Source: an uncultured delta proteobacterium (lineage in GTDB: Bacteria; Desulfobacterota; BSN033; UBA1163). From it: a stretch of DNA of 64,000 bases. A program made the translations under genes and the position numbers. How positions within the stretch are numbered: position 1 is the stretch's first letter; each line of letters starts with the position of its first letter. The stretch is taken from the NCBI GenBank assembly GCA_963827685.1, contig CAWHBU010000005.1, forward strand, positions 192,001 through 256,000, given 5' to 3'. The notes under the pieces were generated by a model, which saw only the letters and a list, made by a program, of their open reading frames with translations, ran no database searches and was not told the origin of the DNA. Positions 4,786-56,609 of this stretch are shown in pieces.

Positions 4786-4848
4786 AGGGATCTCGATATA
4801 CCCAAATATTCTATGAATTCGGAATGCAAGGGTTCAAAGAAATGCAAA

Positions 4849-4914
4849 TTGCTTATTATTATAAGCAAAAAAATATTTATTTCAATTGCCATTTGTTATA
4901 TAAATTGGTAAAAT
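4849..4914 (+). promoter_or_regulatory. Palindrome and sigma70 promoter upstream of the small-protein/nucleotidyltransferase pair
   Basis: TTGCTTAT-tatt-ATAAGCAA at 4849-4868. TTGCCA (4886)-17 nt-TAAAAT (4909) with an extended TG. Confidence 0.5.
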
Positions 4915-4922
4915 TTAACATA

Positions 4923-5117
4923 ATGAAAAAGGATCCGCATATCCTTAAATTATCTTCGGACGATGAGAAAAAGGAGCTTGAGTTCGAACTCGACTACCTC
5001 TCCTCATTGACCTTTGAAGAGCGGCTCAAGATGATGAGAGAAAAATCAAGAGAAATGTTAAAGCAAATGATTGATCATGGACATCGAAGAGCTGTTGAAA
5101 TCATTAAACGCCCATAA
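4923..5117 (+). CDS. Small helical protein, partner of the downstream nucleotidyltransferase (antitoxin-like)
   Basis: 64 aa from ATG 4923 (ELDYLSSLTFEERLKMM), overlapping the next gene. Confidence 0.6.
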   Translation: MKKDPHILKLSSDDEKKELEFELDYLSSLTFEERLKMMREKSREMLKQMIDHGHRRAVEIIKRP

Positions 5118-5523
5118 TGTTGAATTTGTCATCATCGGAGCAACCGCTTTTCCCATCCATGGATATGCGAGGGCAACCCTTGATATTGATATTTTTATCC
5201 ACCCCGAACTTGAGAATGCGGGCCGCACACTCGATGCCCTTCGAGATTTTGGCTATGACACGGCTGAGATCACTGTCGAAGATTTATTGACACGGAAAGT
5301 ATTGATTCGCCAATATCTGGTAGAGACAGATATCCATCCTTTTGTCACTGGAATCACATTCGATCAAGTATGGAAAAACCGGATTCCCGGAACTTTTGGG
5401 AAGGAAAAAGCTTACTATGCCTCTTTGGATGACCTCATCGTGATGAAGGAATCTGCCGGGAGACCAAAGGATCTCGAAGATCTTAAAGTCCTAAAAATCC
5501 TCAAAGAGAAGAGAAATAAATAA
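5077..5523 (+). CDS. Small nucleotidyltransferase (pol-beta superfamily, DUF6036/AbiEii-like)
   Basis: VIIGATA..HGYARATLDIDI and C-terminal K..AGRPKDLEDL. Confidence 0.75.
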   Translation: MDIEELLKSLNAHNVEFVIIGATAFPIHGYARATLDIDIFIHPELENAGRTLDALRDFGYDTAEITVEDLLTRKVLIRQYLVETDIHPFVTGITFDQVWKNRIPGTFGKEKAYYASLDDLIVMKESAGRPKDLEDLKVLKILKEKRNK

Positions 5524-5556: not shown

Positions 5557-6480
5557 TTAAAGTTCTTCAGGGGTAAAAGCCACCACTTCATCAATCATCT
5601 CGGCATCCCCAAAAACCATGACCAGCCGATCCACCCCGAGTGCGATGCCAGCCGATGGAGGCATATTGTCTAATTCGGCTAAGAATTTATCGGGCATCGG
5701 ATAGATGCATTTGCCAAGGCATTGGCGATTTTCATTTTCTACGTGAAAACGCTTTCTTTGCTCTTTTGAATCAACCAATTCCGAAAAACCATTAGCCAGC
5801 TCCAAACCACCGATATAAAGTTCAAAACGTTCTGCAACAGTTTGATCTTCCCGCTTCAGCCGGGCGAGTGCTCCACGCTGAGCAGGGTAATCATAAATAA
5901 ATGTCGGTTTTTCTACTCCTAGTCTCGGCTCAATGTCCTGAACCATGATTTCATCAAAAAGGTTTCGCTCCAGTGCTTCAGTCACGGAGGTCTGGGTGTA
6001 ACCATGAAATGCCTCCTTGACAGAAATTCTTTCCCATGGCTCGGACAGATCAATCTTATGACCACGGAAAACGATATCTTGCCCCAAACCAACAGCCCTG
6101 TCCACGGATCGGATCAATTCCTCACATTCCTCCATCAAAGAACGGTAGTCACCACCTGCTCTATACCACTCCAGAAGAGTAAATTCAGGGAGGTGCAGGC
6201 TCCCTCGCTCTCTTTCTCTCCAGCACCGGCAGATTTGAAAGATCTTCCCATATCCTGCTGCCATCATACGTTTCATACAAATTTCGGGAGAGGTGTGAAG
6301 GAACCATGTATCGGAGGGAACGGCATCAATATGAGATTCTGGTGCAGGGGTGGCAATTCGGTGGGGGGTCTCTACTTCCAGATAGCCTTTTTCAATAAAA
6401 AACTGCCTGATCCCCTGTAGGACACGTGCCCTTTGTTGAAGGTTTTCTTTGCGTCTTGCAAGTGGCCAGTTTTTCGCCAC
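5557..6480 (-). CDS. epmA: EF-P lysine-lysine ligase
   Basis: LysRS catalytic-domain paralog (LHTSPE, HLPEFTLLEWYR, ELANGFSEL, GIALGVDRL) next to efp. Start taken at GTG 6480. Confidence 0.92.
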   Translation of the reverse strand: MAKNWPLARRKENLQQRARVLQGIRQFFIEKGYLEVETPHRIATPAPESHIDAVPSDTWFLHTSPEICMKRMMAAGYGKIFQICRCWRERERGSLHLPEFTLLEWYRAGGDYRSLMEECEELIRSVDRAVGLGQDIVFRGHKIDLSEPWERISVKEAFHGYTQTSVTEALERNLFDEIMVQDIEPRLGVEKPTFIYDYPAQRGALARLKREDQTVAERFELYIGGLELANGFSELVDSKEQRKRFHVENENRQCLGKCIYPMPDKFLAELDNMPPSAGIALGVDRLVMVFGDAEMIDEVVAFTPEEL

Positions 6481-6484
6481 GAAC

Positions 6485-7048
6485 CTACTCTTTGACCCTT
6501 TTCGAAAATTCACCCGTTCGGGTATCAATGGTAATCAGCTCACCTTCTTCGATGAACGGAGGGACGCGAAGTACATAGCCGGTTTCTAACGTAGCGGGCT
6601 TGAAATCCGCCTTCGAGGTATCTCCTCTCACCCAAGGCTCCGTCTTAATTACCCTGAGATTGACGAAGTTCGGCAACTCGACCCCAATCGCTCTATCTCC
6701 GAACAACAGGACCTCCACATTAAAATTTTCGATCAGAAAGTTCTTGGCATCCCCCAGAGATTCCTCGTTGATAATGATCTGTTCGTAGGTTTCATTATCC
6801 ATGAAGTGATAGTGATCACCTTCCTTATAAAGAAATTGCATGGCTCGTTCTTCTAATGAAGCGGGCTCGAAGGTTTCTCCCTCACGATACGTTCTATCAA
6901 TACTTAAGCCCGTGATCATATTCCTCAGTTTCGTCCGATAAAGGGCTTGGCCCTTGCCGGGTTTGGAAAATTCGAAAGCCGTCACGATGTACGGTTCTCC
7001 ATCAATGATGACTTTCAAGCCCTTTCTTAAATCCGAAGCAGTATACAT
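6485..7048 (-). CDS. efp: Elongation factor P
   Basis: KPGKGQA loop, KPATLETG, VPPFIEEGE. Confidence 0.97.
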   Translation of the reverse strand: MYTASDLRKGLKVIIDGEPYIVTAFEFSKPGKGQALYRTKLRNMITGLSIDRTYREGETFEPASLEERAMQFLYKEGDHYHFMDNETYEQIIINEESLGDAKNFLIENFNVEVLLFGDRAIGVELPNFVNLRVIKTEPWVRGDTSKADFKPATLETGYVLRVPPFIEEGELITIDTRTGEFSKRVKE

Positions 7049-7062
7049 AGCTTATTCTTTTT

Positions 7063-7145
7063 CCCTCATCCCCTTCCGCCCTCAAGGGGCAAAGGTAAGC
7101 CTGCTTGCCCTGCCTATTGCAGGCAGGCGCAGGCAGGGGTGGGGG
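7063..7145. repeat. REP-like hairpin carrying two nested CCTGC...GCAGG palindromes
   Basis: CCCTCATCCC...GGTGGGGG host. Outer CCTGCTTGC|CGCAGGCAGG spans 7100-7137; inner CCTGCCTATTGCAGGCAGG spans 7109-7127. Confidence 0.7.
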
Positions 7146-7160
7146 TAAATCTTCATTCCG

Positions 7161-7778
7161 TCAAAAATTATAAAAGAAACGCTCTCGAATTCGTTCCGCC
7201 ATGGATCCTGCCGTCTTTTGAATGGCAGCTTGTTTAGCCGCTTCGTTGGTAACACCACTGGATGAAGCCCGAAACCATTGGCTTTCACTCAAACCATTCT
7301 CCTCCCAAAGGACCTTCCCGGTCCGGTCCTTCAGAGATAAACCGACGACGATACCGATCTGATATTGCAAAACAAAACCAGATTTATCATAAGCAACTGA
7401 ATAGGTGGTAAAAGATCCGACAACACCTTCCAAAATGGCATCTGCTTCTGCCCGGCTTACGACCTTCACCCTTCTATCTTGGATGAACTCGTTCAAAAAA
7501 GCTTGAGTGAATGGGATTTCAATTCCAGGCTCAAAGGTATTGTTTTTGAACGTTGGGATGGCAATGGAACTGAGACCTGGTGGAACATGTGTCTCCTTAC
7601 CGACCATCTGGTATCCACAGGCCACTAGCAGAACCAGGCTGATAATTGATAACCACCTGTAATTTCGGATTTCGGATTGCGGATTGGGGAATTTCTCTGT
7701 GGTTGAGTTAACAGGTAAAGACCCTAAACTGACATTCTGGATTCTGTCTTCTGTATTCATCTTTTCCGTTCTTAACAT
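7161..7778 (-). CDS. lptE: LPS-assembly lipoprotein LptE
   Basis: Lipobox [17 protein letters not shown], located directly after leuS. Confidence 0.85.
7662..7758. repeat. 7-bp-period arrays inside the lptE 5' region
   Basis: ATTTCGG ATTTCGG ATTGCGG ATTGGGG (7662-7689) and ATTCTGG ATTCTGT CTTCTGT ATTC (7734-7758). Confidence 0.7.
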
Positions 7779-10369
7779 ACAATATTGACCAGTTTTTTGG
7801 GCACGAGGATCACCCGTTTGATCTCCTTACCTTCAAGCAATTTCCGAATTCTCTCACTTTTTAATGCCCAGGCCTTTACTTCCTCCCCCCCATACGAGGC
7901 AGGAATAGTCATCCGATCCCTCAATTTTCCATTCACCTGAATGACCATCAAGACTTCATCTTCCAAAACGGCTTCCGGGTCGTAATCGGGCCATCGGGTT
8001 TTGACGATCGATTCCCGATTCCCCAGCGCTTCCCAGAGCTCTTCGGCAAAGTGAGGGACAAAGGGCGAGAGCAAAACGACCACTGTCTCAAGCGCCTCGC
8101 GCAATACCCTTCTGGAAATATCATCGGCGTTGTCTTTGACCTCCGAAACGTAGATCTCATTCACCAATTCCATGACGGCACTGATCGCGGTGTTAAAATG
8201 GAATCGTTCAATGTCTTCCGTGACCCTTTTGATCGTTTTGTGGGTCTTCTGCCGTAGAGATTTTTGACCTCCCTCAAGGACTGTTCCGAAAGGAAGTGGT
8301 TTTACATTTTCAAGATGACGATGCTGCTCATAAAAGAGTCTCCAGACCCGATTGAGGAAACGGGCAGACCCGTCCACTCCCTGGTCGCTCCAATCCAAAT
8401 CCTTCTCAGGCGGAGAAGCGAAGAGGCAAAACATCCTGGCCGTATCCGCACCGTATTTCTCAATCAAGTATTCAGGGTCGACCACGTTCTTCTTGGATTT
8501 GGACATCTTTTCAAGCCTTCCGATAGAGATGAGGCTGCCGCACTTTCGGCAACGAATCGTCTCTCCCTGCCCCTCCATCTCATCGGGGAAGAGATAACCA
8601 TCCTTGGCACACTCGTATACTTCTTTACAAACCATCCCCTGAGTCAAAAGGTTTGTGAACGGCTCATCGACGCTTACCCATCCCATCTCTTTTAGAACAC
8701 GGGTGAAAAATCGGGAATAGAGAAGGTGCAGAATCGCATGTTCAATCCCTCCAATGTATTGATCCACGGGCATCCAGTAATCCACCCGTTTTTTGTCTAA
8801 AGGACCCTTATCATAGTCAGGGCATGCAAACCGATCGAAATACCAAGAGGACTCGACAAAGGTATCCATGGTGTCTGTCTCCCTTCGGCCTGGCCCCCCA
8901 CATTGAGGGCACCGGGTTTCCACAAACTCTTTTAACCCAGAAAGAGGCGACTTTCCCATCCCGGTGATCTCTATATTGGAGGGAAGGACGACAGGAAGAT
9001 CTTTTTCGGGGACGGGGACAGTTCCACATCGCCCGCAGTAAATGATGGGGATGGGCGCTCCCCAATAACGCTGTCTGGAAATGCCCCAATCCCTTAATCG
9101 ATAACTGATTCTGCTTCCACCGAGTCCCTTCTCATCGAGATATTGAGCGATTTTCTCTCTTGCTTTAATGCTATCCATTCCGTTAAATTGACCGGAGTTG
9201 ACCAGAAAGCCTTCTCCTTCATAAGCCTCCGTCATCGTGTTAGCATCCAGAACTCGATCCTCTGGTTGGACGACCACAATCAAAGGGAGTCCGAGTTTCT
9301 TCGCAAATTCAAAGTCTCTCTGGTCGTGGGTGGGCACAGCCATCACTGCTCCCGTTCCATACTCCATCAAAACAAAATTGGCAACGAAAATGGGCATCCG
9401 GGCCTGGGTCACCGGATTCAGGCAATAACCTCCGGTGAAAACACCCTCCTTTTCTGTCGTCTCAGCGGTCCTCTTTATCTTGTCCTGCCGTCTCATTCTT
9501 TCGACGAATTCTTGTACCGCCTGCTCCTGTGAGGTCCCTTTGGAGAGGCTCAGGGCAAGGGGGTGTTCGGGTGCCAAACTCATGAATGTTGCGCCAAATA
9601 CTGTATCCTGCCGGGTGGTGAAGACTTTAATGACCTCTTTCGAATGCTCCAAAGGAAAATGAATTTCAGCGCCGATGGACTTTCCAATCCAGTTGCGTTG
9701 CATGGTGAGAACCCGTTCGGGCCATCCAGGAAGTTTATCGCACCATTCGAGAAGTTCTTCTGCGTATGCCGTGATTTTAAAGAACCATTGATCCAGCTCT
9801 TTCTGTGTGACACCTGGATCATCGGCATGGCCTCGCCAGCATGTCCCGTCGCTCATCACCTGTTCATTCGCCAAAACGGTGTTGCAGATCTCACACCAAT
9901 TAACAAAGGACCTCCTTTTATAGGCCAATCCCCTCTCATACATTCTTACGAAGAAGAGTTGCTCCCATTTGTAATAGGATACGTCACAGGTAGCAAACTC
10001 CCGATCCCAGTCATAGCTGAAGCCCATCCGCTTCAACTGACTTCTCATGGTACCAATGTTCTCGTAAGTCCATTTGGCAGGGTGAACTCCACGCTCCATC
10101 GCAGCGTTTTCCGCAGGCATGCCAAAGGCATCCCAGCCCATGGGGTGTAGGACATTAAAGCCTTTCATCTTTTTGTAGCGGGCAACAACATCCCCGATAG
10201 AGTAATTCCGTACGTGGCCCATGTGGATCTTGCCCGACGGATAGGGGAACATTTCAAGAAGATAATATTTCTCTTTATTCCGGTCCTCCGTCACCTTAAA
10301 GAGATTCTGAATTTCCCAGATCTTCTGCCACTTCTTTTCAATCTCTTCGTGGTGATAACGTTGCTTCAT
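7772..10369 (-). CDS. leuS: Leucine--tRNA ligase
   Basis: [13 protein letters not shown] (HIGH motif), KMSKS, editing-domain GTGAVMAVP. Confidence 0.98.
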
Positions 10370-10386
10370 GCCATTCCCCGATTTAT

Positions 10387-10483
10387 AGTCCAGAGTTCGG
10401 AGTTCTTAGTCCAGAGTAAACTCTCATTTCCTAACTAATTTTTTTTCTTGTAACTCTTAATTCCGAACTCTTAACTCTAAACT
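10387..10483. repeat. Inverted pair of 7-bp-period arrays (argG/leuS junction)
   Basis: AGTCCAG AGTTCGG AGTTCTT AGTCCAG AGT ... AACTCTT AATTCCG AACTCTT AACTCTA AACT. Confidence 0.75.
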
Positions 10484-10490
10484 AATTTTC

Positions 10491-11693
10491 TCATCCTCTC
10501 ATCATCCTCCGGATTCGGAGTCTCAAAGCATTGAGCCGGATGAACCCTTCCGCATCTTTCTGATTATAGACGATATCCTTCTCAAAGGTAGCGAAGGCTC
10601 CATGGTAGAGAGATTTTTCTGACTTCCGGCCGATCACGGTACAGTTCCCTTTGTAGAGTTTCAGGCGAACCGTTCCGGTCACATCCTTCTGTGTCTCATC
10701 GATCGCTTTCTTCAAAATCTCCATCTCCGGTGAAAACCAGTATCCATAATAGATCAATTCCGATATCTTGGGGATCAGGCTATCCCGAAAATGCATGACC
10801 TCTCTGTCCATGGTCATTGATTCGATGGCTCGATGGGCAATGTGAAGGATCGTTCCCCCCGGAGTTTCATAGACTCCTCTTGATTTCATCCCTACGTAAC
10901 GATTCTCCACCATATCGACCCGGCCGATTCCGTTTCGACCTCCCAACTCATTCAATTGGGACAACAGGACGGCAGGAGAAAGTCCCTTTCCGTCGATCCG
11001 TTTTGGAACGCCATCTTCAAAATCGATTTCAATCACTGTGGGGCGGTCAGGTGCCTTTTCTGGAGAGACGGAGAGAACAAACATATTCTTTGGCGGCTCA
11101 GCCCAAGGATCTTCAAGAATTCCTCCTTCGAAACTGATGTGCAGGAGATTTCGGTCAGAAGAATAAGGCTTCTCTTTTGTCACGGGGATGGGAATTCCGT
11201 TTTCCCGAGCATAGGCGATCAAATCCTCTCTCGACTTAAATTGCCATTCCCGCCAAGGAGAGATCACCCGAATGTAAGGATTAAGCGCATAGTAGGTCAA
11301 TTCAAATCGGACCTGATCGTTCCCCTTCCCTGTAGCCCCATGAGCCACGGCATCTGCCCCCTCTAATTGGGCTATCTCCACCTGCCTCTTGGCGATTAAG
11401 GGCCGAGCGATGGAAGTGCCGAGGAGATAAGTTCCCTCATAGATGGCATTGGCTTTTATTGCTGTCAAGACATAATCCCGAACGAACTCCTCCCTGAGGT
11501 CCTCAATATAGACCTTACTGGCACCTGTGGCTCTGGCCTTTTCTTCCAGGTGATTCAATTCTTCGGCCTGGCCGATATCTGCAGTGAAAGCGATCACCTC
11601 ACACCCAAATTCATTTTTCAACCATTTCAAAATGATAGAGGTGTCCAGGCCCCCGGAATAAGCCAGGACTACCTTCTTCACTACGCCTTTCAT
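10491..11693 (-). CDS. argG: Argininosuccinate synthase
   Basis: [34 protein letters not shown]. Confidence 0.98.
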
Positions 11694-11709
11694 GGAAACC
11701 CCCTTATCA

Positions 11710-11875
11710 ATTTCCGATTTCGGATTGCGGAATTCGGATTATAGTAACTTGGATTCAAAGCTTCGCAGTCCGGATTCAACATTCTGTATTATAAGAATAT
11801 TTCCACCAATTTCGGAATTCGCGACAAAAGCACTTGAATTTACATTCCGCAATCCGCATTCGGTACTCCGCAATT
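11710..11875. repeat. Inverted pair of 7-bp-period arrays (argD/argG junction)
   Basis: ATTTCCG ATTTCGG ATTGCGG AATTCGG ... ATTCCGC AATCCGC ATTCGGT ACTCCGC AATT. Confidence 0.75.
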
Positions 11876-13063
11876 GAAAAAGACTTCCTCTAAAGCCTTG
11901 ACCACTCGGTCGACTTCTTCCTTAGTGACAATCAGCGGAGGAAGGAACCGGAGCACATTTCCCATGGTGCAGTTGATGAGAATTCCTCTCTGCATCATCT
12001 CCGTGACAATAGAACCCCCCTCCATCTTCAACTCCATGCCAAGGATCAAACCTTTCCCTCGAACCTCCTCAACGAAAGGAAATTTTTTCTTGATCTTCTC
12101 GAGCTGCGACAGGAAGTAATCTCCTACGTTTCGGCAATTCTCCAATATCCCTTCGTCCAAAAAGGCTGTCAAGGCGGCTACACCCGCTGCGGTGGCCAAG
12201 GGATTCCCTCCAAAGGTGGAGGCATGGTCACCTGGGTTAAAACTCTCAGCGATTCCTTTCTTGATCAATAAAGCTCCAATGGGGACTCCTCCTGCCAATG
12301 ATTTGGCAAGCGTGAGGATATCGGGTTCAACCCCGTCATGCTCATAAGCAAAGAGTTTCCCCGTCCGGCCCATCCCCACTTGGACCTCATCAAAGATGAG
12401 GAGGAGCCCCTTCTCATCACAGATCTCACGGAGCGCTTTCAGATAACCCTCTGAAGGGCAGTTCACTCCTCCTTCTCCCTGGATGGGTTCCAACATGACA
12501 GCACAGGTTTTCGAATTGATGCCCTTCTTCACTGCCCCGATATTGTTGAAGGGGACATATTTGAACCCAGGCATCAGAGGTTCATACCCTTTGTGGAACT
12601 TCTCTTGACCCGTTGCGGTCAGGGTGGCCAGAGTCCTGCCGTGGAAGGATCGCTCCATGGTGATGATCTCATATCGATCCTTTCCCATCTTCTCCTTTGC
12701 ATATTTCCGGGCCAATTTCATTGCACCTTCATTGGCCTCAGCCCCGCTATTGCAGAAGAAGACTTTATCAGCAAAGGAGTGCTTACAAAGAAGAGAAGCG
12801 AGCTGGATCTGAGGTTCGATATAATACAGGTTTGAGACATGGATCAGTCTTTCTGACTGATCTTGAATGGCCTTGACAACTTTCGGGTGGCAGTGGCCTA
12901 AACTGCATACCCCCAGGCCCGATACAAAATCCAAATATTCTTTGCCCTCCATATCCCAAACCCGAGTTCCCTTCCCTCTGACCAGAAGCACGGGATAACG
13001 GGCATAGGTATTGGCCACGTATTTTTCCGATAACATCATCATGGTTTGAGAATCCATCTGCAT
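11840..13063 (-). CDS. argD: Acetylornithine aminotransferase
   Basis: NSGAEANE, SFHGRT, DEVQVGMGRTG, AKSLAGG, located in the arg cluster. Confidence 0.95.
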   Translation of the reverse strand: MQMDSQTMMMLSEKYVANTYARYPVLLVRGKGTRVWDMEGKEYLDFVSGLGVCSLGHCHPKVVKAIQDQSERLIHVSNLYYIEPQIQLASLLCKHSFADKVFFCNSGAEANEGAMKLARKYAKEKMGKDRYEIITMERSFHGRTLATLTATGQEKFHKGYEPLMPGFKYVPFNNIGAVKKGINSKTCAVMLEPIQGEGGVNCPSEGYLKALREICDEKGLLLIFDEVQVGMGRTGKLFAYEHDGVEPDILTLAKSLAGGVPIGALLIKKGIAESFNPGDHASTFGGNPLATAAGVAALTAFLDEGILENCRNVGDYFLSQLEKIKKKFPFVEEVRGKGLILGMELKMEGGSIVTEMMQRGILINCTMGNVLRFLPPLIVTKEEVDRVVKALEEVFFNCGVPNADCGM

Positions 13064-13075
13064 CTCGAAAAAATC

Positions 13076-13150
13076 AGTTTGGAGTGATTAGTCCGGTGTC
13101 CGGAGTATCTATTTTAAATCTCCGAACTCCCGAACTCCGAACTCAAAACT
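13076..13150. repeat. Inverted pair of 7-bp-period arrays (argB/argD junction)
   Basis: AGTTTGG AGTGATT AGTCCGG TGTCCGG AGT ... CTCCGAA CTCCCGAA CTCCGAA CTCAAAA CT. Confidence 0.75.
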
Positions 13151-13152
13151 TC

Positions 13153-14037
13153 TTATTCTCTCGTGATCTGTGTCCCAATCCCTATATCCGTAAAAATCTC
13201 CAACAGGATCGCATGCTCCACCCTTCCATCAATGATATGGGTTTTGGCCACCCCTTCTTCTAAGGCATTGAGGCAGCAATTTACCTTTGGAATCATTCCG
13301 GACGAGATGACTTTTTGGGTGATTAATCGCTTTGCTCGTCCAACATCGAGCGTGGCCATCAACCGATGTCTCCCATCCATCACTCCCTCCACATCGGTAA
13401 GTAATATCAATTTTTCCGCCTTTAGCGCAGAGGCTATCTTCCCAGCCGCCAGATCCGCATTGATATTGTAGGTCTCTCCTTCGTCCCCTACGCCCACCGG
13501 TGCAATGACCGGAATGAAATTCTCCTTCTCCAAGGCCTCGATCACCCCAGGGTTGATGGCCTTTACTTCCCCCACCATTCCGATGTCAATGATTTCGGGC
13601 ATTTCACCCTTACCGCGACGCTTCGTCAATTGCAATTTCTTGGCGGTGATGAGATGTCCGTCTTTTCCGCTCAGCCCGACGGCTTTCCCTCCCTGTTGGT
13701 TGATCAAGGCAACAATCTCTTTATTTACCTTCCCGACGAGGACCATTTCCACGACATCCATCGTCTCTCCGTCTGTTACCCTCATCCCCTCTACGAAATA
13801 AGATTTCTTCCCTACCTTGGTCAACATTTCACCGATCTGAGGCCCCCCCCCGTGGACGACAACAGGGTTAAGGCCGATATATTTCAAAAGAACGACATCG
13901 AGAGCGAAGCTCCGCTTCATTCTCTCTTCCTCCATGGTGCTCCCGCCATACTTAATCACGATGGTTTTGTCATAGAATCGCCGAATATATGGAAGGGCCT
14001 CCAGAAGTACCTTGGCTTTATCAATGGCGTTTCCCAT
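13153..14037 (-). CDS. argB: Acetylglutamate kinase
   Basis: VIKYGGS, VVHGGGP, GMRVTD, YNINAD, GMIPK. Start at ATG 14037 with GAGGG upstream. Confidence 0.96.
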
Positions 14038-14074
14038 AACGATGATCCCTCGCGTTAGTTCGGAAACCTTTTTC

Positions 14075-14118
14075 TTCGTGTCCGTGTTCGGACACGTGAC
14101 ACACGACACGGTCACGAA
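14075..14118. repeat. Inverted 6-bp-period array (hslU/argB junction)
   Basis: TTCGTG TCCGTG T ... ACACG GTCACG AA; the arms match at 12 of 13 positions. Confidence 0.6.
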
Positions 14119-15450
14119 TTACAAGATATACCGGCTCAGATCTTCATCCTCTACAAAATCTTTCAGCTTCTCTCGGACATATTTCGCATCGATCACCATG
14201 CTTTTCCCGGACATCTCAGGGGCATCAAACGAAATCTCATCCAGTAATTTTTCCATCATGGTATAGAGCCGCCTGGCTCCGATGTTCTCTGTCCTCTCAT
14301 TAATGAGAGCCGCCATCTCGGCAATCTCTGCAATGCCATCCTCTTTAAAATTGACCTTGACCGACTCTGTCTCCAACAAAGCGGTGTACTGTTTGATCAG
14401 GGCGTTTTCTGGCTCGGTGAGGATTCGCACGAGATCTGCCTTACCTAAAGAATCCAATTCGACCCGGATCGGAAACCGCCCCTGAAGCTCAGGGATGAGA
14501 TCCGAGGGTTTGGAAACATGGAATGCTCCGGCAGCAATAAACAAAACATGGTCTGTCTTGACCATCCCGTATTTCGTCGTCACCGTCGTCCCTTCCACAA
14601 TGGGCAGGATATCCCTCTGAACGCCTTCCCGAGAAACATCCGGACCCAAGGTGGATTCCCTTCCAGCGATCTTATCAATTTCGTCAAGGAAGATAATTCC
14701 CGATTGTTCGACCCGCTCAATGGCCTGTTTGATGACGGAGTCCATATCGATCAGTTTATACGCCTCCTCCTGGGAGAGGATGGTGACTGCTTCCGGAACC
14801 TTCACCTTTCTCTGCTTTTTCTTCTTCGGAAAGAGACTCCCAAACATATCTTTGATGTTGACATCCATCTCTTCCAATCCAGAGGCAGAAAAGATCTCGA
14901 CAATAGGAAGGTTTCGGTCCACAATCTCCACATCCACATACTTGTCATTTAACTTCCCGGCCTTCAGCAACTTTCGCAGTTTTTCGCGAGTAGCTCGCTG
15001 ATCTTCGCCTTCCTTCTGTGTCCCCTTCCCAGAGGAAGGGAGGAGCAAATCCAGGAGCCGCTCTTCAGCTATCTCCTCTGCTCTCTGTCGGACCTTTTGG
15101 GACTCCTCCGCTTTCATCATATTGACAGCCAGCTCCGTGAGATCCCTGATCATCGACTCCACATCCCTGCCTACATAACCCACTTCTGTAAATTTCGATG
15201 CCTCAATCTTCAGAAAAGGAGCCTGGGCCAATTTAGCCAACCTTCGAGCGATCTCTGTCTTACCGACCCCCGTGGGGCCAATCATAATGATGTTCTTGGG
15301 CGCAATTTCGTCCCGGAGAGGCTCCGGAACCTGTTGACGTCTCCAACGGTTTCTCAATGCAATGGCCACCGCTCTCTTCGCATCCGTCTGCCCGACAATG
15401 TATTTATCCAGTTCGGACACGATCTCCCGGGGGGTGAAGGTCTTCATCAC
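14119..15450 (-). CDS. hslU: ATP-dependent protease ATPase subunit
   Basis: [23 protein letters not shown]-terminal DLSRYIL. Confidence 0.98.
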
Positions 15451-15980
15451 AATTCCTCCACGATGATTTGATCATTCGTATAAATGCAGATGGAGGCAGC
15501 GATCTTCATCGCCTCTACAGCGATGGCCCTGGCATCCAAATTTGAAAACTCAACCAATGCCTTGGCAGCAGCATGGGCATAAGGACCGCCACTTCCAATG
15601 GCCGTCACCCCATCGTCGGGCTCAATGACATCCCCATTTCCGGAGATGACGAGCGTGTGTTCAGAGTCGGCGATGATGAGCAAGGCCTCCAACCTACGGA
15701 GGATCCGATCCGTTCTCCAATCTTTGGCCAATTCCACGGCTGCCCTGAGTAGATTCCCGCTGAACTGGTCCAGTTTTTCCTCAAACTTTGCGAAAAGGGT
15801 GAAAGCATCTGCCGTGGCCCCTGCAAAACCAGCGAGAACTTTATCATGGTAAATCCTTCGAACCTTCCTGGCAGTATGCTTCATGATGGTGTGTTCAAGA
15901 GACACCTGACCGTCCCCTGCCATGACCACCTTTCCTTTGTGCCGAACTGATAGAACCGTCGTACCCCGTATCTTGTGCAT
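15447..15980 (-). CDS. hslV: ATP-dependent protease subunit
   Basis: G-TTVL N-terminal threonine, [19 protein letters not shown]. The longer ORF-track start reads through the repeat array. Confidence 0.97.
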
Positions 15981-16035
15981 TGCTTCAGTCCTCATTTTCA
16001 TCCCTTTCCCCACTCTCACCAGTCTTACGGATTTA

Positions 16036-16236
16036 AAATCCCAAATCCCAATTTCCAAATCCCAAATAAATTCCAACCTCCAATTCCCAATAATGAAAAT
16101 GATTTTGTTTCGAATTTGGAAATTTGATCATTGGAATCTATTTGTAATTTGGCCTGCCTGCGCGAAGCCCCGCCTGCCAAAGCCTTGTGCGGCGGGCAGG
16201 CGCTTCGGCGAAGGCAGGTGCTTGAGGCTTGGTGTT
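16036..16236. repeat. Inverted 7-bp-period arrays with a nested palindrome insertion (xerC/hslV junction)
   Basis: AAATCCC AAATCCC AATTTCC AAATCCC... opposite ...AATTTGG [66-bp GC-rich insert 16153-16218] TGCTTGA GGCTTGG TGTTT. Confidence 0.8.
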
Positions 16237-17213
16237 TACCCCTTATTCCCGTCATTTTTCCGATCCGCACTCCTGAAACTGCGAGGATGGGCCTTGTCAT
16301 AGACCTCCATCAATTTCCCCATACTGACGTGGGTATATCTCTGGGTGGTCGAGAGGCTCGAATGTCCTAACATCTCCTGAATCTCCCGGATATCAGCCCC
16401 GGCATCCAAAAGATGCGTTGCAAACGTGTGACGGAGGCTGTGAGGGCTGACTTTTCGGAAAATGCCCGAATGTCTTACATACTTCTTAACCAATCTTCCC
16501 ACACTCCGTGCAGTCAATCTCCCTCCTAAGGAGTTGACAAAAATAGGGCCATCTCCCTTTACCATTCCTCGTTCTTCCAAATAGGACTTCGTTGCCTCTA
16601 TGGCTTTCATACCGACCGGGACGATGCGCTCTTTCCTTCCCTTCCCCATCACTCTCACGATGCCCAAGTCCAGATCCAATTGATCCGAATTCAATCCCAC
16701 CAACTCGCTGACACGCAATCCGCTGGAATAAAGAAGTTCTAAAATGGCTCGATCCCTTAAACCCTTCTCCTTCGACCCTTCTGAAGGCCTTTCAGAAATA
16801 CTCTTGGGTGATTCCATCAACCGGAAGGCCTCATCCACAGTGAGCGTGGTGGGAAGGGTCTTCTCCACCTTCGGAGTCGAAACGCTTTTGGCCGGGTTAG
16901 AAGGAATCACTTGCTCTCTGACCAAATATTTAAAAAAAGAGCGCAGCGTGGAAATCTTTCTGGCGATGGAACTCTTCTTATTTTTCCGGTGGAGGAAGCT
17001 TAAATATTTTCGAATGGCTATGCGATCCACTTTTTCTATCTCCACTTCCCCCGTAGGACTAAGATACATTCCCAAACTCTTCAAAAAATCCTCAAATCCC
17101 TCTAAATCCCTTCGGTAACATCGACAGGTATGAGGTGAGGCGTTCTTTTCAACAGACAGATAATGTATAAATTGATGGATGAAACCACGCTTATCAACAA
17201 ACCGAGAAGCCAT
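16236..17213 (-). CDS. xerC: Tyrosine recombinase XerC
   Basis: Catalytic R-K-H-R-H-Y set (GLRVSE, GKGRKER, HSLRH, LGH, TQRYTH) and xerC-hslVU synteny. Confidence 0.9.
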   Translation of the reverse strand: MASRFVDKRGFIHQFIHYLSVEKNASPHTCRCYRRDLEGFEDFLKSLGMYLSPTGEVEIEKVDRIAIRKYLSFLHRKNKKSSIARKISTLRSFFKYLVREQVIPSNPAKSVSTPKVEKTLPTTLTVDEAFRLMESPKSISERPSEGSKEKGLRDRAILELLYSSGLRVSELVGLNSDQLDLDLGIVRVMGKGRKERIVPVGMKAIEATKSYLEERGMVKGDGPIFVNSLGGRLTARSVGRLVKKYVRHSGIFRKVSPHSLRHTFATHLLDAGADIREIQEMLGHSSLSTTQRYTHVSMGKLMEVYDKAHPRSFRSADRKNDGNKG

Positions 17214-17317
17214 TCATCCCCTCATTGGTCATCCCTTCAGACATCATGTAAGTTATGAAAATATTATTAAAAATTAATTCTATAACACAATCCCTAAATT
17301 TATCAATATTTTTCTCA

Positions 17318-17347
17318 TTGACATTCCTTAAGTTTTCCGTATACACT
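17318..17347 (+). promoter_or_regulatory. Putative sigma70 promoter for dodecin
   Basis: TTGACA-18 nt-TACACT, followed by an AAGGAGG ribosome-binding site. Confidence 0.5.
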
Positions 17348-17388
17348 TGAATTGTTAATGCCAATTTCAAGAAAAGGAGGTGATAAGA

Positions 17389-17601
17389 ATGGCAGAACCA
17401 AGAGTCGCGAGGGTGACCGAAATTATTGCGGGTTCTTCAAAGGGTTTCGAGGATGCCATCAAGGTTGGCTTTGCAAGAGCGGCAAAGACCTTAAGGGGTA
17501 TCACCGGAATGCGTGTTGCTGAAATGCGGGTGGCAGTGGAAAATTCTAAAATTATCGAATACAGGGTCAGGTTGGAAATCATTTTCGTCCTCGAAACCTA
17601 A
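17389..17601 (+). CDS. Dodecin family flavin-binding protein
   Basis: 70 aa with RVTEIIAGSSKGFEDAI...RAAKTLRGI...EYRVRLEIIF and a strong RBS. Confidence 0.9.
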   Translation: MAEPRVARVTEIIAGSSKGFEDAIKVGFARAAKTLRGITGMRVAEMRVAVENSKIIEYRVRLEIIFVLET

Positions 17602-17628
17602 TGACTTATCTATCTAACATTTACCAAC

Positions 17629-17673
17629 CCTGCTTGCCCCGCCCTCCGTCGGGACCGGGGCCGGCAGGCAAGC
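17629..17673. repeat. Nested GC-rich palindrome
   Basis: GCTTG[CCCCG...CGGGG]CCGGCAGGCAAGC. Confidence 0.55.
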
Positions 17674-17691
17674 GTAAAGAGGACTAAAAAT

Positions 17692-17734
17692 GAAAGGCCC
17701 TATCTTCAAAGCTGAGGTAGGGCCTTTCTGTTTT
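17692..17734 (+). terminator. Rho-independent terminator between convergent genes
   Basis: GAAAGGCCCTATCTTCA-aagc-TGAGGTAGGGCCTTTC followed by TGTTTT. Confidence 0.75.
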
Positions 17735-17785
17735 CAGATCCCCATTTCTCATTGAATGGTAATAAAAACCCAGAAAATTCAGGGC

Positions 17786-18796
17786 TTAAGTTCTCTCCTT
17801 GATTACTTTCCGCAGCTCCTCTTTACTTGCGACTGCGGTTCCGACCTTTCCAACGACAATCCCCGCCGCATAGTTCGCTAAACTCGCTGCATCTTTAACC
17901 CTCACACGAGGCCCTGTTCCTAAAGCAAGAGCCATCGTTCCAATCACCGTATCTCCGGCACCCGTCACATCATAAACCTCTTTGGCGACCGTGGGGACAG
18001 GATAGGGTTGCTGATGAGGCTCGAAAATCGTCATTCCCTTTTCTCCTTGCGTGATGACTAAAGCGTTACACTTCAACCTCTTCAACAGGTTCCTCCCCAT
18101 TCTCTCCACTGAGAATTGATCGGTGACAGAGATCCTTGATGCTTCACTCGCCTCATTGGTATTCGGGGTAATCACGGTGGCTCCTTTATAAAAAAAGAAA
18201 GTTTTTAGCTTCGGATCAACCATGATCAATTTCTTTGAATGCCTCGCTTTTCTGATGATGGTTTGAATCAGCGTTCTCGTCAACAAACCTTTCCCGTAAT
18301 CAGAAATCACGATCCCGTCGAAATCTTCAATTTTGTCCGTCAAAAACTTCGATAGATTTCTGAAGGTAGAAACCTTGGGGTGATCGGTCGTCTCCCGATC
18401 AACTCGAACCAATTGTTGGTAATGTGGATGGTGAGCGATGATCCTGGTCTTAACCGTCGTCTGTCTCCCTTGTTCAAAAAATATCCCTTGCGTTTGAATT
18501 CCCCTTTCAACAATTCTTTTATATATTTTCTTCCCATTCTCGTCATCACCCACAATGCCACAGAGCGATACGATCCCTCCAAGTGAACGAATATTATGCG
18601 CAACATTGGCAGCCCCTCCAAGGTTAAAATCCTCTGTTTCCACAATGATGACTGGAACGGGAGCCTCTGGGGATATCCGAGAGACTTTTCCCAAAATGGA
18701 TCGGTCCATCATAATATCACCCACCACCAAGAGTTTTACCCGAGGAAAATTGTTCAATATGGATTCCAGCTTTTTCCGTTCACTCATCCTGATCAT
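17786..18796 (-). CDS. rfaE1: D-glycero-beta-D-manno-heptose-7-phosphate kinase (HldE kinase domain)
   Basis: RISPEAPVPV, GGAANVA, SDYGKG, DVTGAGDTV, VGKVGT. Confidence 0.93.
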   Translation of the reverse strand: MIRMSERKKLESILNNFPRVKLLVVGDIMMDRSILGKVSRISPEAPVPVIIVETEDFNLGGAANVAHNIRSLGGIVSLCGIVGDDENGKKIYKRIVERGIQTQGIFFEQGRQTTVKTRIIAHHPHYQQLVRVDRETTDHPKVSTFRNLSKFLTDKIEDFDGIVISDYGKGLLTRTLIQTIIRKARHSKKLIMVDPKLKTFFFYKGATVITPNTNEASEASRISVTDQFSVERMGRNLLKRLKCNALVITQGEKGMTIFEPHQQPYPVPTVAKEVYDVTGAGDTVIGTMALALGTGPRVRVKDAASLANYAAGIVVGKVGTAVASKEELRKVIKERT

Positions 18797-32136: not shown

Positions 32137-32571
32137 TCAAATCCTTTCATTAGAAATTTGTCGTTGAGATTCTTCTTTTTCTTCTAAATTCAATATATGA
32201 ACCACAGCATCCTTTAAATCTCTCTTAATGAAAGTAGCATTCGTTGTCCGTTTCTCTTCTGCCCCATAACCTGTTTCGACAAGAAATGTTTTAATATCTA
32301 AGCGTTTTCCAGCTTCAATATCGGTATTTTTATCTCCGATAAGAACTATTTCATCCATTTGATAATTATTTTCTTCAATAACATCCTTTAACAGCTTAGT
32401 ATTGGGTTTCCTACATAAACAATCTTTTGCATACTCCGCAACAATACCATCAGGATGATGGGGGCAGTATAGCACTTTTTCTATTTTAATTCCTTCATTA
32501 TTAAGACGATTCATCATAGATTATGTTAAACGGTGGAATTGTTCCATGGTAAAATAACCTTTTGTTATTCT
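32137..32571 (-). pseudogene. gmhB: Heptose-bisphosphate phosphatase remnant
   Basis: CPHHP..CLCRKP, IGDK..D, VETGYG. The upstream frame ITKGYFTMEQFHRLT* has a TAA at 32521-32523, and the N-terminal DRDG motif is missing. Confidence 0.85.
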
Positions 32572-32664: not shown

Positions 32665-34111
32665 AGAGGGTGTGCTAAATTTAGTTGAAATTTGAGAAGT
32701 GGCTCCTAAAATGGTGGTAATCTCTTACTTTGGGAAGAAAAAGAAAAACCACCAAGAAAGGAGCCAGTGATGGAGAAGATATTACGGATTGGTAGAGGTG
32801 TCAAGGTTAGGCGGGCGCGGGTGAAAGAGATTTGTGATAGGGGATTGAAGCAGATGGATGTGGATATGAAGATAGAGTTAATCCAGGCATTGATCCCCGT
32901 AGGGTTGTGGCATGTGAAGGAGGTTTTGGAGGAAGAAGTCAGAAGTTTAGCTGGGGAAAGATATAAGCGCCGGGGGGTTCCTGGGTATGATCGTTGGGGG
33001 AGCCAAGGGGGGTCAGTTTATCTATCGGATCAGAAGCTTCCGATCTTGGTGCCAAGGGTGAGAGATAGGCGTGGGGGGAAAGAGGTACGGTTAAAGAGTT
33101 ATGAGCGGTTACAGGAGCCTCGTGGGGCAGATGAAGGGGTATTGAGACGAGTTCTCCATGGATTAAGTTGTCGGAACTATGAGGAGTGTGCGGAAGCGGT
33201 GCCGGAGGCTTTTGGTTTGAGTGGTTCGACAATTTCGAGGCGATACATTCGAGTCAGCGCAAAAGCGCTCAAGGAGCTTTGCGAGCGTCGATTGGAGGGG
33301 TATGATTTTGTAGCATTGATTCTGGATGGGAAGAGTTTTGGTGCAGATGAGATGATTTTGGTATTGGGGATTACCGTCAAAGGGGAGAAGATTCTTTTAG
33401 GATTTATTCAGGCGGGGACGGAGAATGAGCGGGTTGGCCGGGAAATGCTCCAGGGGTTGCTGGAGCGTGGGCTAGAGATGGAAGAAGGGTTTTTATGTGT
33501 GATTGATGGATCGAAAGGGTTGAGGAAAGCGGTGTATGAAGTTTTTGGGAATAAAGCCTTGGTGCAGCGATGCCAGTGGCACAAGCGGGAGAATGTGGTG
33601 AGTTATCTTCCGAAGGCGATGCAGGCTTCGATGAGGCGGAAGCTTCAAGAGGCCTATGAGGAGCCCATCTATGAAAGGGCGAAGGAGAGACTGTTAAAGA
33701 TTCGTAAGGAACTGCAGCTGCTCAACCGATCGGCGGTCAATAGTTTAGACGAAGGATGTGAAGAGACCTTGACGCTGCATCGTTTGGGACTCCTTAGAGA
33801 ATGTGGGATCAGCTTTAAAACCACGAACTGTATCGAATCCTTGATGGCGCTCATTGGTCAGAAGACCGACAAGGTCGATTATTGGAAGAATAGTGATCAG
33901 AAGCATCGGTGGTTAGCCGCAGCCCTTTTAGATATTGAGCCGAGACTTAGAAAGGTCAAGGGTTACAGATATCTTCCACAGTTAAGAATTTCTATCCAGA
34001 GGGAGATTGCGAGACAGGGAGGAAAACAAGAAATGCCGAAGGTGGCGGAGGCGGCCTGATGAACTCAACAAGGAGCCATTATCGAATTTCAACTAAAAAA
34101 GGTATTGACTC
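32665..34111 (+). mobile_element. IS256-family insertion sequence
   Basis: Inverted ends TTTAGTTGAAATT..TGGCTCC / GGAGCCA..AATTTCAACTAAA. A CCCATGG direct repeat flanks it at 32658-32664 and 34112-34118. Confidence 0.88.
32770..34059 (+). CDS. IS256 (mutator-type) transposase
   Basis: VPRVRD, ILDG, VIDGSKGL, QRCQWHK, TTNCIES. Confidence 0.93.
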   Translation: MEKILRIGRGVKVRRARVKEICDRGLKQMDVDMKIELIQALIPVGLWHVKEVLEEEVRSLAGERYKRRGVPGYDRWGSQGGSVYLSDQKLPILVPRVRDRRGGKEVRLKSYERLQEPRGADEGVLRRVLHGLSCRNYEECAEAVPEAFGLSGSTISRRYIRVSAKALKELCERRLEGYDFVALILDGKSFGADEMILVLGITVKGEKILLGFIQAGTENERVGREMLQGLLERGLEMEEGFLCVIDGSKGLRKAVYEVFGNKALVQRCQWHKRENVVSYLPKAMQASMRRKLQEAYEEPIYERAKERLLKIRKELQLLNRSAVNSLDEGCEETLTLHRLGLLRECGISFKTTNCIESLMALIGQKTDKVDYWKNSDQKHRWLAAALLDIEPRLRKVKGYRYLPQLRISIQREIARQGGKQEMPKVAEAA

Positions 34112-55442: not shown

Positions 55443-56609
55443 CTATATTCCATTGAATGAGCCAGAATGTCTCATTAAGATTTGGACGATCTTCTGGCTT
55501 GCCTTCCCATCTCCAAATATCTTACTTCCCTTTAGATACCTCCTTCGTCCCTCCGTATGACTTACCTCTTTCATAATTCTTTCCACACTTGTCCCTACCA
55601 ATACGTTCCAACCACTTTTGATTGTCTCCACCCATTCCGTCTCTTCCCTCAACGTCAAACAGGGAACCCCGAACCAATAGGCCTCTTTTTGAACCCCCCC
55701 TGAATCAGTCAGGATGGCCTTAGCATTCTTTCCCAGTTTGAGCATATCGAGATAAGAGACTGGTTCAATAAATTTAATATTTTTGAATTCGGAGGAGAGA
55801 TGATAGACCTTTATCATCTTCTTCGTCCTCGGATGAAGCGGAAGGACGACAGGGGTTTTTCCCCCAATCTCATTCAAGGCTCTACAGATAGATTTTAGTT
55901 TCTTAGGATCGTCAGTATTTTCAGCGCGGTGGAGAGTAGCCAGATAATAGTTCGGAGTTCGGAGTGAAGAGTTCGGAGTGAAGAGTCCAAGATCACTAAG
56001 GATGGACGACTTCTTTTGGGCCAATTTTGAATAATAGAGAATCGAATCGTACATCACATCGCCTACATTTTTAACTATTCTTCTACTTTCCTCTTTTATC
56101 CCTTCCTTCAGTAAATTCCGGACCGCCTGGTCAGTGGGACAGAATAGAAAAGTTGAAAGATGGTCCGTCAGGAGGCGATTAATTTCCTCGGGCATGTCCT
56201 GGTTATAGCTTCTCAAACCTGCCTCCACATGAGCGACAGGAATTTTTAGTTTTGCCGCCGCCAAAGCACCAGCCAATGTCGAATTCGTATCACCATAAAC
56301 GATGACCCTTTCAGGTCTTTCCTTTTCAAGGACCATCTCAATACGTTCAAGCATCTTACCGGTCTGCTTGGCATGAGAACCGGAACCCACCCCCAGATGG
56401 TAATCCGGCTTGGGAAGCTTAAGTTCTTCAAAAAAGACTTTATCCATCATGTAGTCATAGTGCTGTCCGGTATGAACCAGTATTTCTTGAATCCGCCTCT
56501 TTTCGTAGAGTCGAGTCTGCGACCTTTCATTGATTTTTTGGATCGCACGACAGATTGCTGCGGCCTTAATAAATTGGGGCCTTGCGCCCACAATGGTCAC
56601 AATCTTCAT
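55443..56609 (-). CDS. wecB: UDP-N-acetylglucosamine 2-epimerase, non-hydrolysing (WbpI-like)
   Basis: GARPQFIK, HTGQHYD, GDTNST, HVEAGLRS, HRAEN, DSGGVQKEA. Confidence 0.93.
   Translation of the reverse strand: MKIVTIVGARPQFIKAAAICRAIQKINERSQTRLYEKRRIQEILVHTGQHYDYMMDKVFFEELKLPKPDYHLGVGSGSHAKQTGKMLERIEMVLEKERPERVIVYGDTNSTLAGALAAAKLKIPVAHVEAGLRSYNQDMPEEINRLLTDHLSTFLFCPTDQAVRNLLKEGIKEESRRIVKNVGDVMYDSILYYSKLAQKKSSILSDLGLFTPNSSLRTPNYYLATLHRAENTDDPKKLKSICRALNEIGGKTPVVLPLHPRTKKMIKVYHLSSEFKNIKFIEPVSYLDMLKLGKNAKAILTDSGGVQKEAYWFGVPCLTLREETEWVETIKSGWNVLVGTSVERIMKEVSHTEGRRRYLKGSKIFGDGKASQKIVQILMRHSGSFNGI
55949..55990. repeat. Six tandem 7-mers inside wecB
   Basis: AGTTCGG AGTTCGG AGTGAAG AGTTCGG AGTGAAG AGTCCAA. 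Confidence 0.8.

Follow-up and report, generated by a model that had tools for sequence, protein, structure and literature searches.

Tandem repeats with a unit of seven nucleotides (nt) recur in many prokaryotic genomes. PMC4679880 and PMC4692102 summarise a survey by Mrazek et al. (2007) in which, among long prokaryote repeats with units of 5-11 nt, a unit of seven is the most frequent, and polymerase slippage was proposed as the cause; according to the passages of PMC4692102 cited here, no detailed literature on heptamer repeats existed. The GGGAATC/GGGGAYT arrays of Xanthomonas and Nostoc (Rehm et al. 2015; passages of PMC4692102) typically have about 4 copies, are often degenerate and are functionally unexplained. 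The roughly 185 GGGAATC arrays of Xanthomonas are 89-93% intergenic, lie on average 28 nt from the upstream open reading frame (ORF) and mostly between co-directional ORFs, and include 70-75 convergent pairs able to form stem-loops; their gene context is mostly kept between species and their length is variable. TAACTGA direct repeats of 2-6 copies occur in marine Beggiatoaceae, cyanobacteria and Bacteroidetes, with a proposed post-transcriptional role (MacGregor 2015; passages of PMC4679880), and Geobacter metallireducens has multicopy elements of 4-5 heptamers in tandem, found 15-49 times per family in genes as well as between them (Aklujkar et al. 2009; passages of PMC2700814). Here we describe heptamer arrays in a stretch of 64,000 nt from an uncultured delta proteobacterium (GCA_963827685.1, contig CAWHBU010000005.1, positions 192,001 to 256,000; hereafter the window), where they sit at successive junctions of a co-directional minus-strand gene string made up of xerC, hslV, hslU, argB, argD, argG, leuS, lptE, efp and epmA (NCBIfam; lptE by Pfam). 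These arrays belong to an already known, functionally unexplained repeat class: they consist of head-to-tail units, exceed what composition predicts, are intergenic and stop-proximal, form inverted pairs and change length in unit steps. Our preferred reading, to which we give a probability of roughly 0.6, is that they are simple-sequence repeats of the heptanucleotide class found in Xanthomonas, cyanobacteria, Beggiatoaceae and Geobacter, mostly arranged as inverted pairs, which give each spacer between cistrons of the xerC-hslVU-argBDG-leuS-lptE string a long imperfect palindrome and probably act as hairpins in the mRNA.

The resemblance to the described systems is considerable. As in Xanthomonas, 7-nt units stand in tandem, arrays come as inverted pairs, and they are stop-proximal, intergenic and placed between co-directional genes; the GGGATTT type at xerC/hslV even resembles the Xanthomonas units (PMC4692102). 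With the TAACTGA repeats they share a mostly intergenic location, some overlap with ORF ends and an occurrence in scattered phyla, whereas those repeats have one unit type, are direct (one inverted case among 170 sets) and lie a few bases upstream of starts (PMC4679880). The Geobacter elements come from a related group (a former deltaproteobacterium) and also adjoin amino-acid biosynthesis genes, but they are GC-rich single arrays annotated as regulatory, and the passages of PMC2700814 cited here describe no inverted pairing. The Mrazek survey, as summarised, is without a paired inverted architecture or clustering in one operon; a polymerase slippage that favours seven would explain why the period persists while the units differ.

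Several tests confirm the arrays in the window and restrict them to a period of 7. Tandem Repeats Finder (TRF) returned 14 period-7 rows among 34, nine of the 14 within 7662-16067, and segments of 21 positions with at least 18 self-matches occur at lag 7 (5 segments) and lag 14 (8), with none at the other lags from 3 to 15. At a cut of 14 matches in 21, there are 14 period-7 regions, 9 of them in 7654-16070; 50 random sequences of first-order composition average 3.0 such regions and have at most 9. The double AGTTCGG unit (up to 3 mismatches) has 21 matches versus 4.98 expected and the double ATTKCGG unit (up to 2 mismatches) 15 versus 2.75; in neither case did any of 100 dinucleotide shuffles reach the observed count. 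Counted as arrays, the window holds 11 at period 7 versus 0-2 at periods 5, 6 and 8-11. An earlier note, made from the letters of this DNA, had named five junctions (xerC/hslV, argB/argD, argD/argG, argG/leuS and leuS/lptE) as sites of heptamer arrays and had set period-7 enrichment over composition-matched shuffles beforehand as a test. The arrays are present at all five, both in the sequence and in TRF output, and the enrichment was found.

The junction arrays are described on the minus strand, with the genes of the string, and their folding was assessed by comparing the mRNA strand of each junction with 60 dinucleotide shuffles (fold z). At xerC/hslV (z -4.3), a degenerate CCAAAT-type array forms the 5' arm on the mRNA (16112..16152; sequence and fold) and a GGGATTT/GGAAATT-type array, AAATCCC on the plus strand, the 3' arm (16029..16095; TRF period 7, 4.6 copies; period-7 region at 16029-16070), which pairs with 16112-16152 in the fold. 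The argB/argD hairpin (13064..13152; TRF and fold; z -4.1, -33.5 kcal/mol) is made of an arm of three AGTTCGG units, a 14-nt loop and an irregular CCGAACT-type arm, followed by six T. The argD/argG junction (z -2.2) has an ATTGCGG-type 5' arm (11841..11880; TRF 11846-11874), a spacer of ~100 nt (11745..11840) that is conserved in two relatives, L007 and L018 (blastn 84% over 191 nt to L007), and a CCGMAAT-type 3' arm (11701..11744; TRF 11710-11740) that ends just ahead of the argG ribosome-binding site. The 5' arm here supplies the last ~10 codons and the stop of argD, the ArgD profile ending at residue 395-397 of 407. At argG/leuS (z -3.4) a GAGTTMR-type array of the AGTTCGG family as 5' arm (10450..10486; TRF, period-7 region and fold) faces a complementary CTCYGRAC-type array as 3' arm (10382..10420; period-7 region and fold). 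The two arrays at leuS/lptE (z +1.1) consist of unrelated units and their arms do not pair: an ACAGAAT-type array (7730..7764; TRF 7734-7758) is without a complementary partner there, and a CCGMAAT-type array (7654..7696; TRF 7662-7690), just upstream of the lipoprotein signal peptide, has the strongest period-7 score in the window (19/21). Four of the five junctions thus have z values of -2.2 to -4.3, compared with -1.7 to +0.6 for eight control spacers elsewhere in the window, which bears out the claim in the earlier note that four sites have two pairing arms; the spacers between arms, put there at roughly 15-100 nt, match as well. A sixth, short hairpin at hslU/argB (spacer 14036-14118), with CGTGAC/CGTGTC-type inverted repeats in the sequence directly after the hslU stop (about 14075..14118), is missing from that list and was overlooked because the ORF finder extends argB through it. 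Rfam 15 gave no match across the window at gathering score, and a tRNA scan of the window found none. Inspection by eye also picked out a palindrome resembling an ArgR box at the argD stop and, within the argD/argG spacer, a hexamer resembling a -10 element; neither was supported by the promoter scan.

A scan for ArgG that took one genome per species yielded 80 loci, numbered L001 onwards. The 30 loci nearest by ArgG (86-95% identical), from uncultured metagenome-assembled genomes (MAGs) labelled Thermodesulfobacteriota or Syntrophaceae, form the close set, and array positions were counted in these 30 loci plus the window (31 sequences). The midpoint lies outside coding sequence for 113 of 129 arrays, a non-coding part that makes up 18% of bases. 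The median distance from the upstream stop to the first array of a gap is 5 nt, with 44 of 75 within 10 nt or overlapping the stop; from the end of the last array to the following start it is 27 nt (n = 60). Inside xerC..epmA, arrays occupy 64 of the 156 co-directional gaps of at least 40 nt, compared with 7 of the 141 flanking gaps in those sequences (5/93 co-directional, 1/24 convergent and 1/24 divergent), and the median fold z is -2.6 inside the string (n = 141) versus -1.0 outside (n = 59; Mann-Whitney p = 1.6e-4); these gap and fold counts recur over orthologous junctions of related species and are not phylogenetically independent. Across all gaps, arrays are found in 69 of 249 co-directional versus 3 of 53 convergent or divergent ones. 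We do not claim a co-directional preference, however, because it vanishes on the flanks alone, once the gene string is excluded. In the window and all 80 loci together there are 54 complementary array pairs, 37 of which are less than 100 nt apart.

The gene order of the string is kept in the 30 closest loci, and most of their junctions, which are 18 to about 400 nt long, carry period-7 arrays. What changes is the unit. The types found at one and the same junction across species include AGTTCGG, ATTGCGG/ATTTCGG, CCAAAT-like, CGTGACC, CAATGAC, GACGATG, GCGCTAW and GTGGTGA, and the type can be swapped between very close species, for example L022 vs L024 and L025. An array-type element is present at argD/argG in 28 of the 30 species. 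On a 30-tip ArgD+ArgG tree its unit type requires at least 14 changes (10 of 200 shuffle values: 15-18), and with types merged into superfamilies 6 changes (15 of 300 shuffle values: 8-9). Short junctions free of arrays also occur, at argD/argG of L014 (37 nt), argG/leuS of L027 (38 nt) and throughout L009. Among relatives the same junction may be filled with other unit types, empty or absent, a variation the earlier note had proposed to look for. Distant relatives have tight junctions. The architecture extends beyond this clade: inverted heptamer arrays with units of their own reappear in a Chlamydiae-labelled MAG (L071) with 16 arrays over 21 kb, in Nitrospinota (L041) and Syntrophorhabdus (L073) with 10 each, and in a Blastocatellia MAG (L042). 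Many other loci have no such arrays. As a separate observation, in more distant relatives the gene argF (ornithine carbamoyltransferase) separates argD from argG (L029 2961-3872; L033 9022-9936); the clade of the window is without argF at that place and has a heptamer hairpin there instead (window 11694-11839).

The diversity of units bears directly on the idea that the arrays are DNA binding sites for a multimeric regulator or nucleoid protein controlling arg and neighbouring genes, in which three units would make 21 bp, or two helical turns. The Geobacter metallireducens elements of 4-5 heptanucleotides are annotated as putative global regulator sites (passages of PMC2700814), heptamer repeats affect promoter use in Nostoc (passages of bioRxiv 10.1101/2022.06.06.494920), and arrays surround arg genes in the window, L071 and L041. 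We nevertheless regard this idea as very unlikely: no single sequence-specific protein would read the arrays, because at least 8 unrelated unit types share one junction across species; the arrays follow stop codons rather than marking promoters; and the association with arg genes is a sampling effect, since the loci were fetched by ArgG.

The same diversity sets this material apart from the Xanthomonas arrays (PMC4692102). At least 8 unit types occur in one clade here, most of them without a G-rich sequence, so that G-quadruplex formation does not account for the arrays in general; moreover, the arrays are clustered in one gene string, the unit type of a junction is replaced between species, and other palindromes are nested in the arrays. 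What our analysis adds is the lineage, the many unit types in one clade, type replacement at fixed junctions, clustering in one string, palindrome nesting and in-gene growth by unit steps. Among the long simple repeats of bacteria, heptamers are the most frequent. The gene string offers a natural comparison over about 30 species, in which genes and junctions are shared and the hairpin is nearly always present with a changing unit type, and could help to tell mutational bias apart from selection acting on RNA or DNA hairpins.

Growth in unit steps is best seen inside a gene. The window gene wecB (55443..56609, minus strand) contains an in-frame AGTTCGG-family array (55942..55986, the perfect 14-nt repeat at 55949-55986; TRF period 14, 2.3 copies, 100% matches) encoding TPNSSLRTPN. 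At this point WecB orthologues have 0, +7 or +14 residues (0, 21 or 42 nt). Translating three units of one or the other main type gives the inserted peptides, TPNSxLR in some orthologues and NPQSAIR in others. In L071, two paralogous hairpins that are 90% identical over 61 nt differ by one 7-nt unit. Other observations go beyond growth in place. The argB/argD hairpin of the window matches the argD/argG hairpin of L001, L004, L010, L011 and L012 in its arms, its irregular right-arm unit and its loop, and in L041 a ferredoxin gene is flanked by two hairpins that share 97% identity over 64 nt. The argument that simple slippage at one site is insufficient, already put forward in the earlier note, therefore holds, given that the same hairpin is found at argB/argD in the window and at argD/argG in five relatives. 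Orthologous junctions account for 57 of the 69 significant matches between sites.

Could the hairpins be mobile? We consider it possible, if somewhat unlikely, that they are non-autonomous mobile palindromes (MITE-, REPIN- or foldback-like) with heptamer arms, moved by an enzyme encoded elsewhere and preferring post-stop sites or existing hairpins. Movement would account for the same hairpin at non-orthologous junctions, the near-identical paralogues within L041 and L071, the replaced unit type between L022 and L024 or L025, and the empty junctions in L014, L027 and L009. It would also fit nesting: in L004, and only there, an AGTTCGG hairpin sits inside an ATTGCGG hairpin, and the arms or centres of hairpins in relatives contain GCCTGCC...GGCAGGC palindromes, C-rich/G-rich palindromes and an inverted-repeat element of roughly 110-130 nt. 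On the other hand, no target-site duplication or conserved termini were seen, arrays in so few of the flank gaps (7/141) are odd for a free mover, and most of the matches between sites are those of orthologous junctions. The in-frame 21-nt steps in wecB and the one-unit indel between the L071 paralogues likewise indicate in-place growth. REP and REPIN sequences are short extragenic palindromes in many copies, with inverted doublets that form hairpins, and are found between operon genes; REPINs have no 7-nt internal periodicity, are tied to the RAYT (Y1) transposase and come in hundreds of near-identical copies per genome. In contrast, there is no Y1/RAYT-type or other candidate transposase among 56 proteins scanned in the window, 64 kb of genome having been examined, apart from a copy of IS256. 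Sequences beside the heptamer hairpins have diverged too far for insertion boundaries to be placed. The only clean filled/empty comparison concerns a GC-rich palindrome of L023, which relative to L005 and L019 is a clean 20-nt insert without duplication.

The two nested families deserve separate description. The GC-rich GCCTGCC...GGCAGGC palindromes, about 11 to 75 nt long, are a second, non-heptameric repeat family. In the window they occur at 7085-7145 (lptE/efp), at 16153..16225 on the minus strand, beside the xerC/hslV array, and at about 17330-17400, upstream of xerC; they are also present in L003, L008, L013, L020, L022, L023 and L026. In L013, a near-identical copy of the 16153..16225 palindrome is inserted within an AGTTCGG array. 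The inverted-repeat element of roughly 110-130 nt has the ends GTCATTCC ... GGAATGAC and is found in L010, L011, L022, L023 and L024, at or near the centre of heptamer hairpins at the leuS/lptE and argD/argG junctions; it looks like a small mobile element.

Returning to the preferred reading of slippage-grown arrays that act as mRNA hairpins, the following sequence of events can be envisaged. Arrays would grow by replication slippage in 7-nt register, and template switching, gene conversion or mobilisation in trans would make the two arms alike and copy hairpins to nearby junctions. The arrays would be transcribed and fold into 20-35-bp stems, as expected from their location inside a co-directional gene string. 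A stem after each cistron would most likely protect the 3' end, be processed by an RNase III-type enzyme or cause partial termination, which would uncouple the expression of functionally unrelated neighbouring genes. We infer this role in the mRNA from the position of the hairpins and by analogy with REP-type elements. That a hairpin is kept in about 30 species while its sequence is replaced, lies close to the stop codon and leaves the ribosome-binding site free speaks for some constraint. The GGA/GGAG motifs in several unit types, which resemble CsrA or Shine-Dalgarno sites, could be a further link, but this is speculation.

Several results weigh against this reading. What looks like constraint would equally result from a process that fills all free space or from a hot spot for insertion. 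There is no strand asymmetry that would point to selection on the RNA: of 48 hairpin-like sites, 25 fold better as sense strand and 22 as antisense strand, and the counts of G-U pairs are 141 vs 132. Aligning the argG/leuS hairpin of 8 species gave no compensatory change at any of 13 consensus pairs. A scan of 6400-17900 for intrinsic terminators gave 15 terminator-like sites versus 13.0 expected, with no junction hairpin among them, and only the argB/argD stem has a following T-run; promoter-like sites in the same region are not enriched either (13 versus 12.2 expected). Orthologous arrays of close species mostly have equal length and differ by point changes rather than copy number, which suggests that slippage is not frequent now. 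To these must be added the shared ancestry behind the gap and fold counts noted above, and the concentration of arrays in one gene string, which slippage alone does not explain. A more far-reaching proposal would make the heptamer-array palindromes a distinct class of self-propagating elements across phyla (Thermodesulfobacteriota, Nitrospinota, the Chlamydiae-labelled MAG and Acidobacteriota), spread to stop-proximal sites in core operons by a dedicated unknown activity, perhaps a polymerase that stutters or a recombinase directed to hairpins, and kept by selection as RNA punctuation even as their sequence is replaced; we think this unlikely.

The earlier note had instead taken the arrays for footprints or empty docking sites of a junction-targeting element that elsewhere carries cargo, for example a gene for a four-helix-bundle (IVS-protein/Avd-like) protein; its alternative, an RNA-processing system, may still apply. 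The filled, empty and absent states of one junction would suit such an element, and some hairpins of relatives do enclose inserts. The single large one among these inserts is a 1.1-kb low-G+C segment at argB/argD of L004 (7531-8667), found in this relative only, with a gene for a GT17-family glycosyltransferase. The inserts are heterogeneous, however, and the GC-rich palindromes, the element of roughly 110-130 nt and the GT17 gene have nothing in common. We searched 83 ORFs for the Pfam four-helix-bundle family PF05635, drawn from 190 unoverlapped small ORFs and 72 array-adjacent ORFs (~107 of the 190, from distant array-poor loci, were left out). There was no match among 26 ORFs (24 small ORFs beside arrays, the L004 insert and LptE), nor in another 57 small ORFs, which came from the window, the close clade and loci rich in arrays. 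No TIGR02436 or other four-helix-bundle model is listed for the 56 window proteins scanned, in agreement with the remark in the earlier note that the window has no such gene. By Pfam, ORFs adjacent to arrays are ferredoxin, YajC, NifU, cytochrome c, PanD and ribosomal proteins S9 and S20, some having no match, and the genes between successive hairpins are ordinary housekeeping genes. Our literature search found neither a link between heptamer arrays and PF05635/TIGR02436 proteins, leaving the association named in the earlier note unsupported, nor a description of these arrays in Thermodesulfobacteriota. The data therefore do not support empty sites of a cargo-carrying element, and we regard this explanation as extremely unlikely.

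In practical terms, the arrays lead to falsely extended ORFs for argB and hslV, change the ends of argD and lptE and may break assemblies (L019). The gene string of the window is annotated on the minus strand by NCBIfam/Pfam as xerC (17213..16236), hslU (15450..14119), argD (13063..11840), argG (11693..10491) and leuS (10369..7772), with lptE (LptE, 7778..7161) by Pfam. We place the hslV start at 15980 and not at 16076. The 320-residue argB ORF (start 14115) is a spurious 5' extension that runs through the hslU/argB hairpin: ArgB of relatives aligns only from about residue 26, and the sequence makes an ATG near 14035 the likely true start. Both leuS/lptE arrays lie inside the long lptE ORF, and no ATG, GTG or TTG is in frame between the two arrays and the lipoprotein signal peptide (window 7654-7778), so that the only canonical lptE starts (7778 or 7760) put both arrays in an N-terminal extension of ~35 residues. 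L015 shares this layout, and L007 and L012 have a normal start beside the signal peptide; the array-encoded extension may be translated, or a rare start codon may be used instead. In L019, runs of N lie within heptamer arrays at argG/leuS and leuS/lptE, which suggests that heptamer repeats break or confuse short-read assemblies.

The window has a G+C content of 44%, and its part from 18 to 64 kb is a polysaccharide-synthesis cluster with one IS256-family transposase gene (32767-34059, plus strand), which is on the opposite strand to nearly all other genes and is adjoined by short gene fragments such as a HAD-hydrolase piece (32137-32517). Finally, DUF6036/DUF2204 small nucleotidyltransferase genes adjoin epmA in the window (4824-5523, plus strand), L002 and L007, and the flank of L006 carries a nucleotidyltransferase/HEPN gene set; these are likely accessory genes of toxin-antitoxin type.

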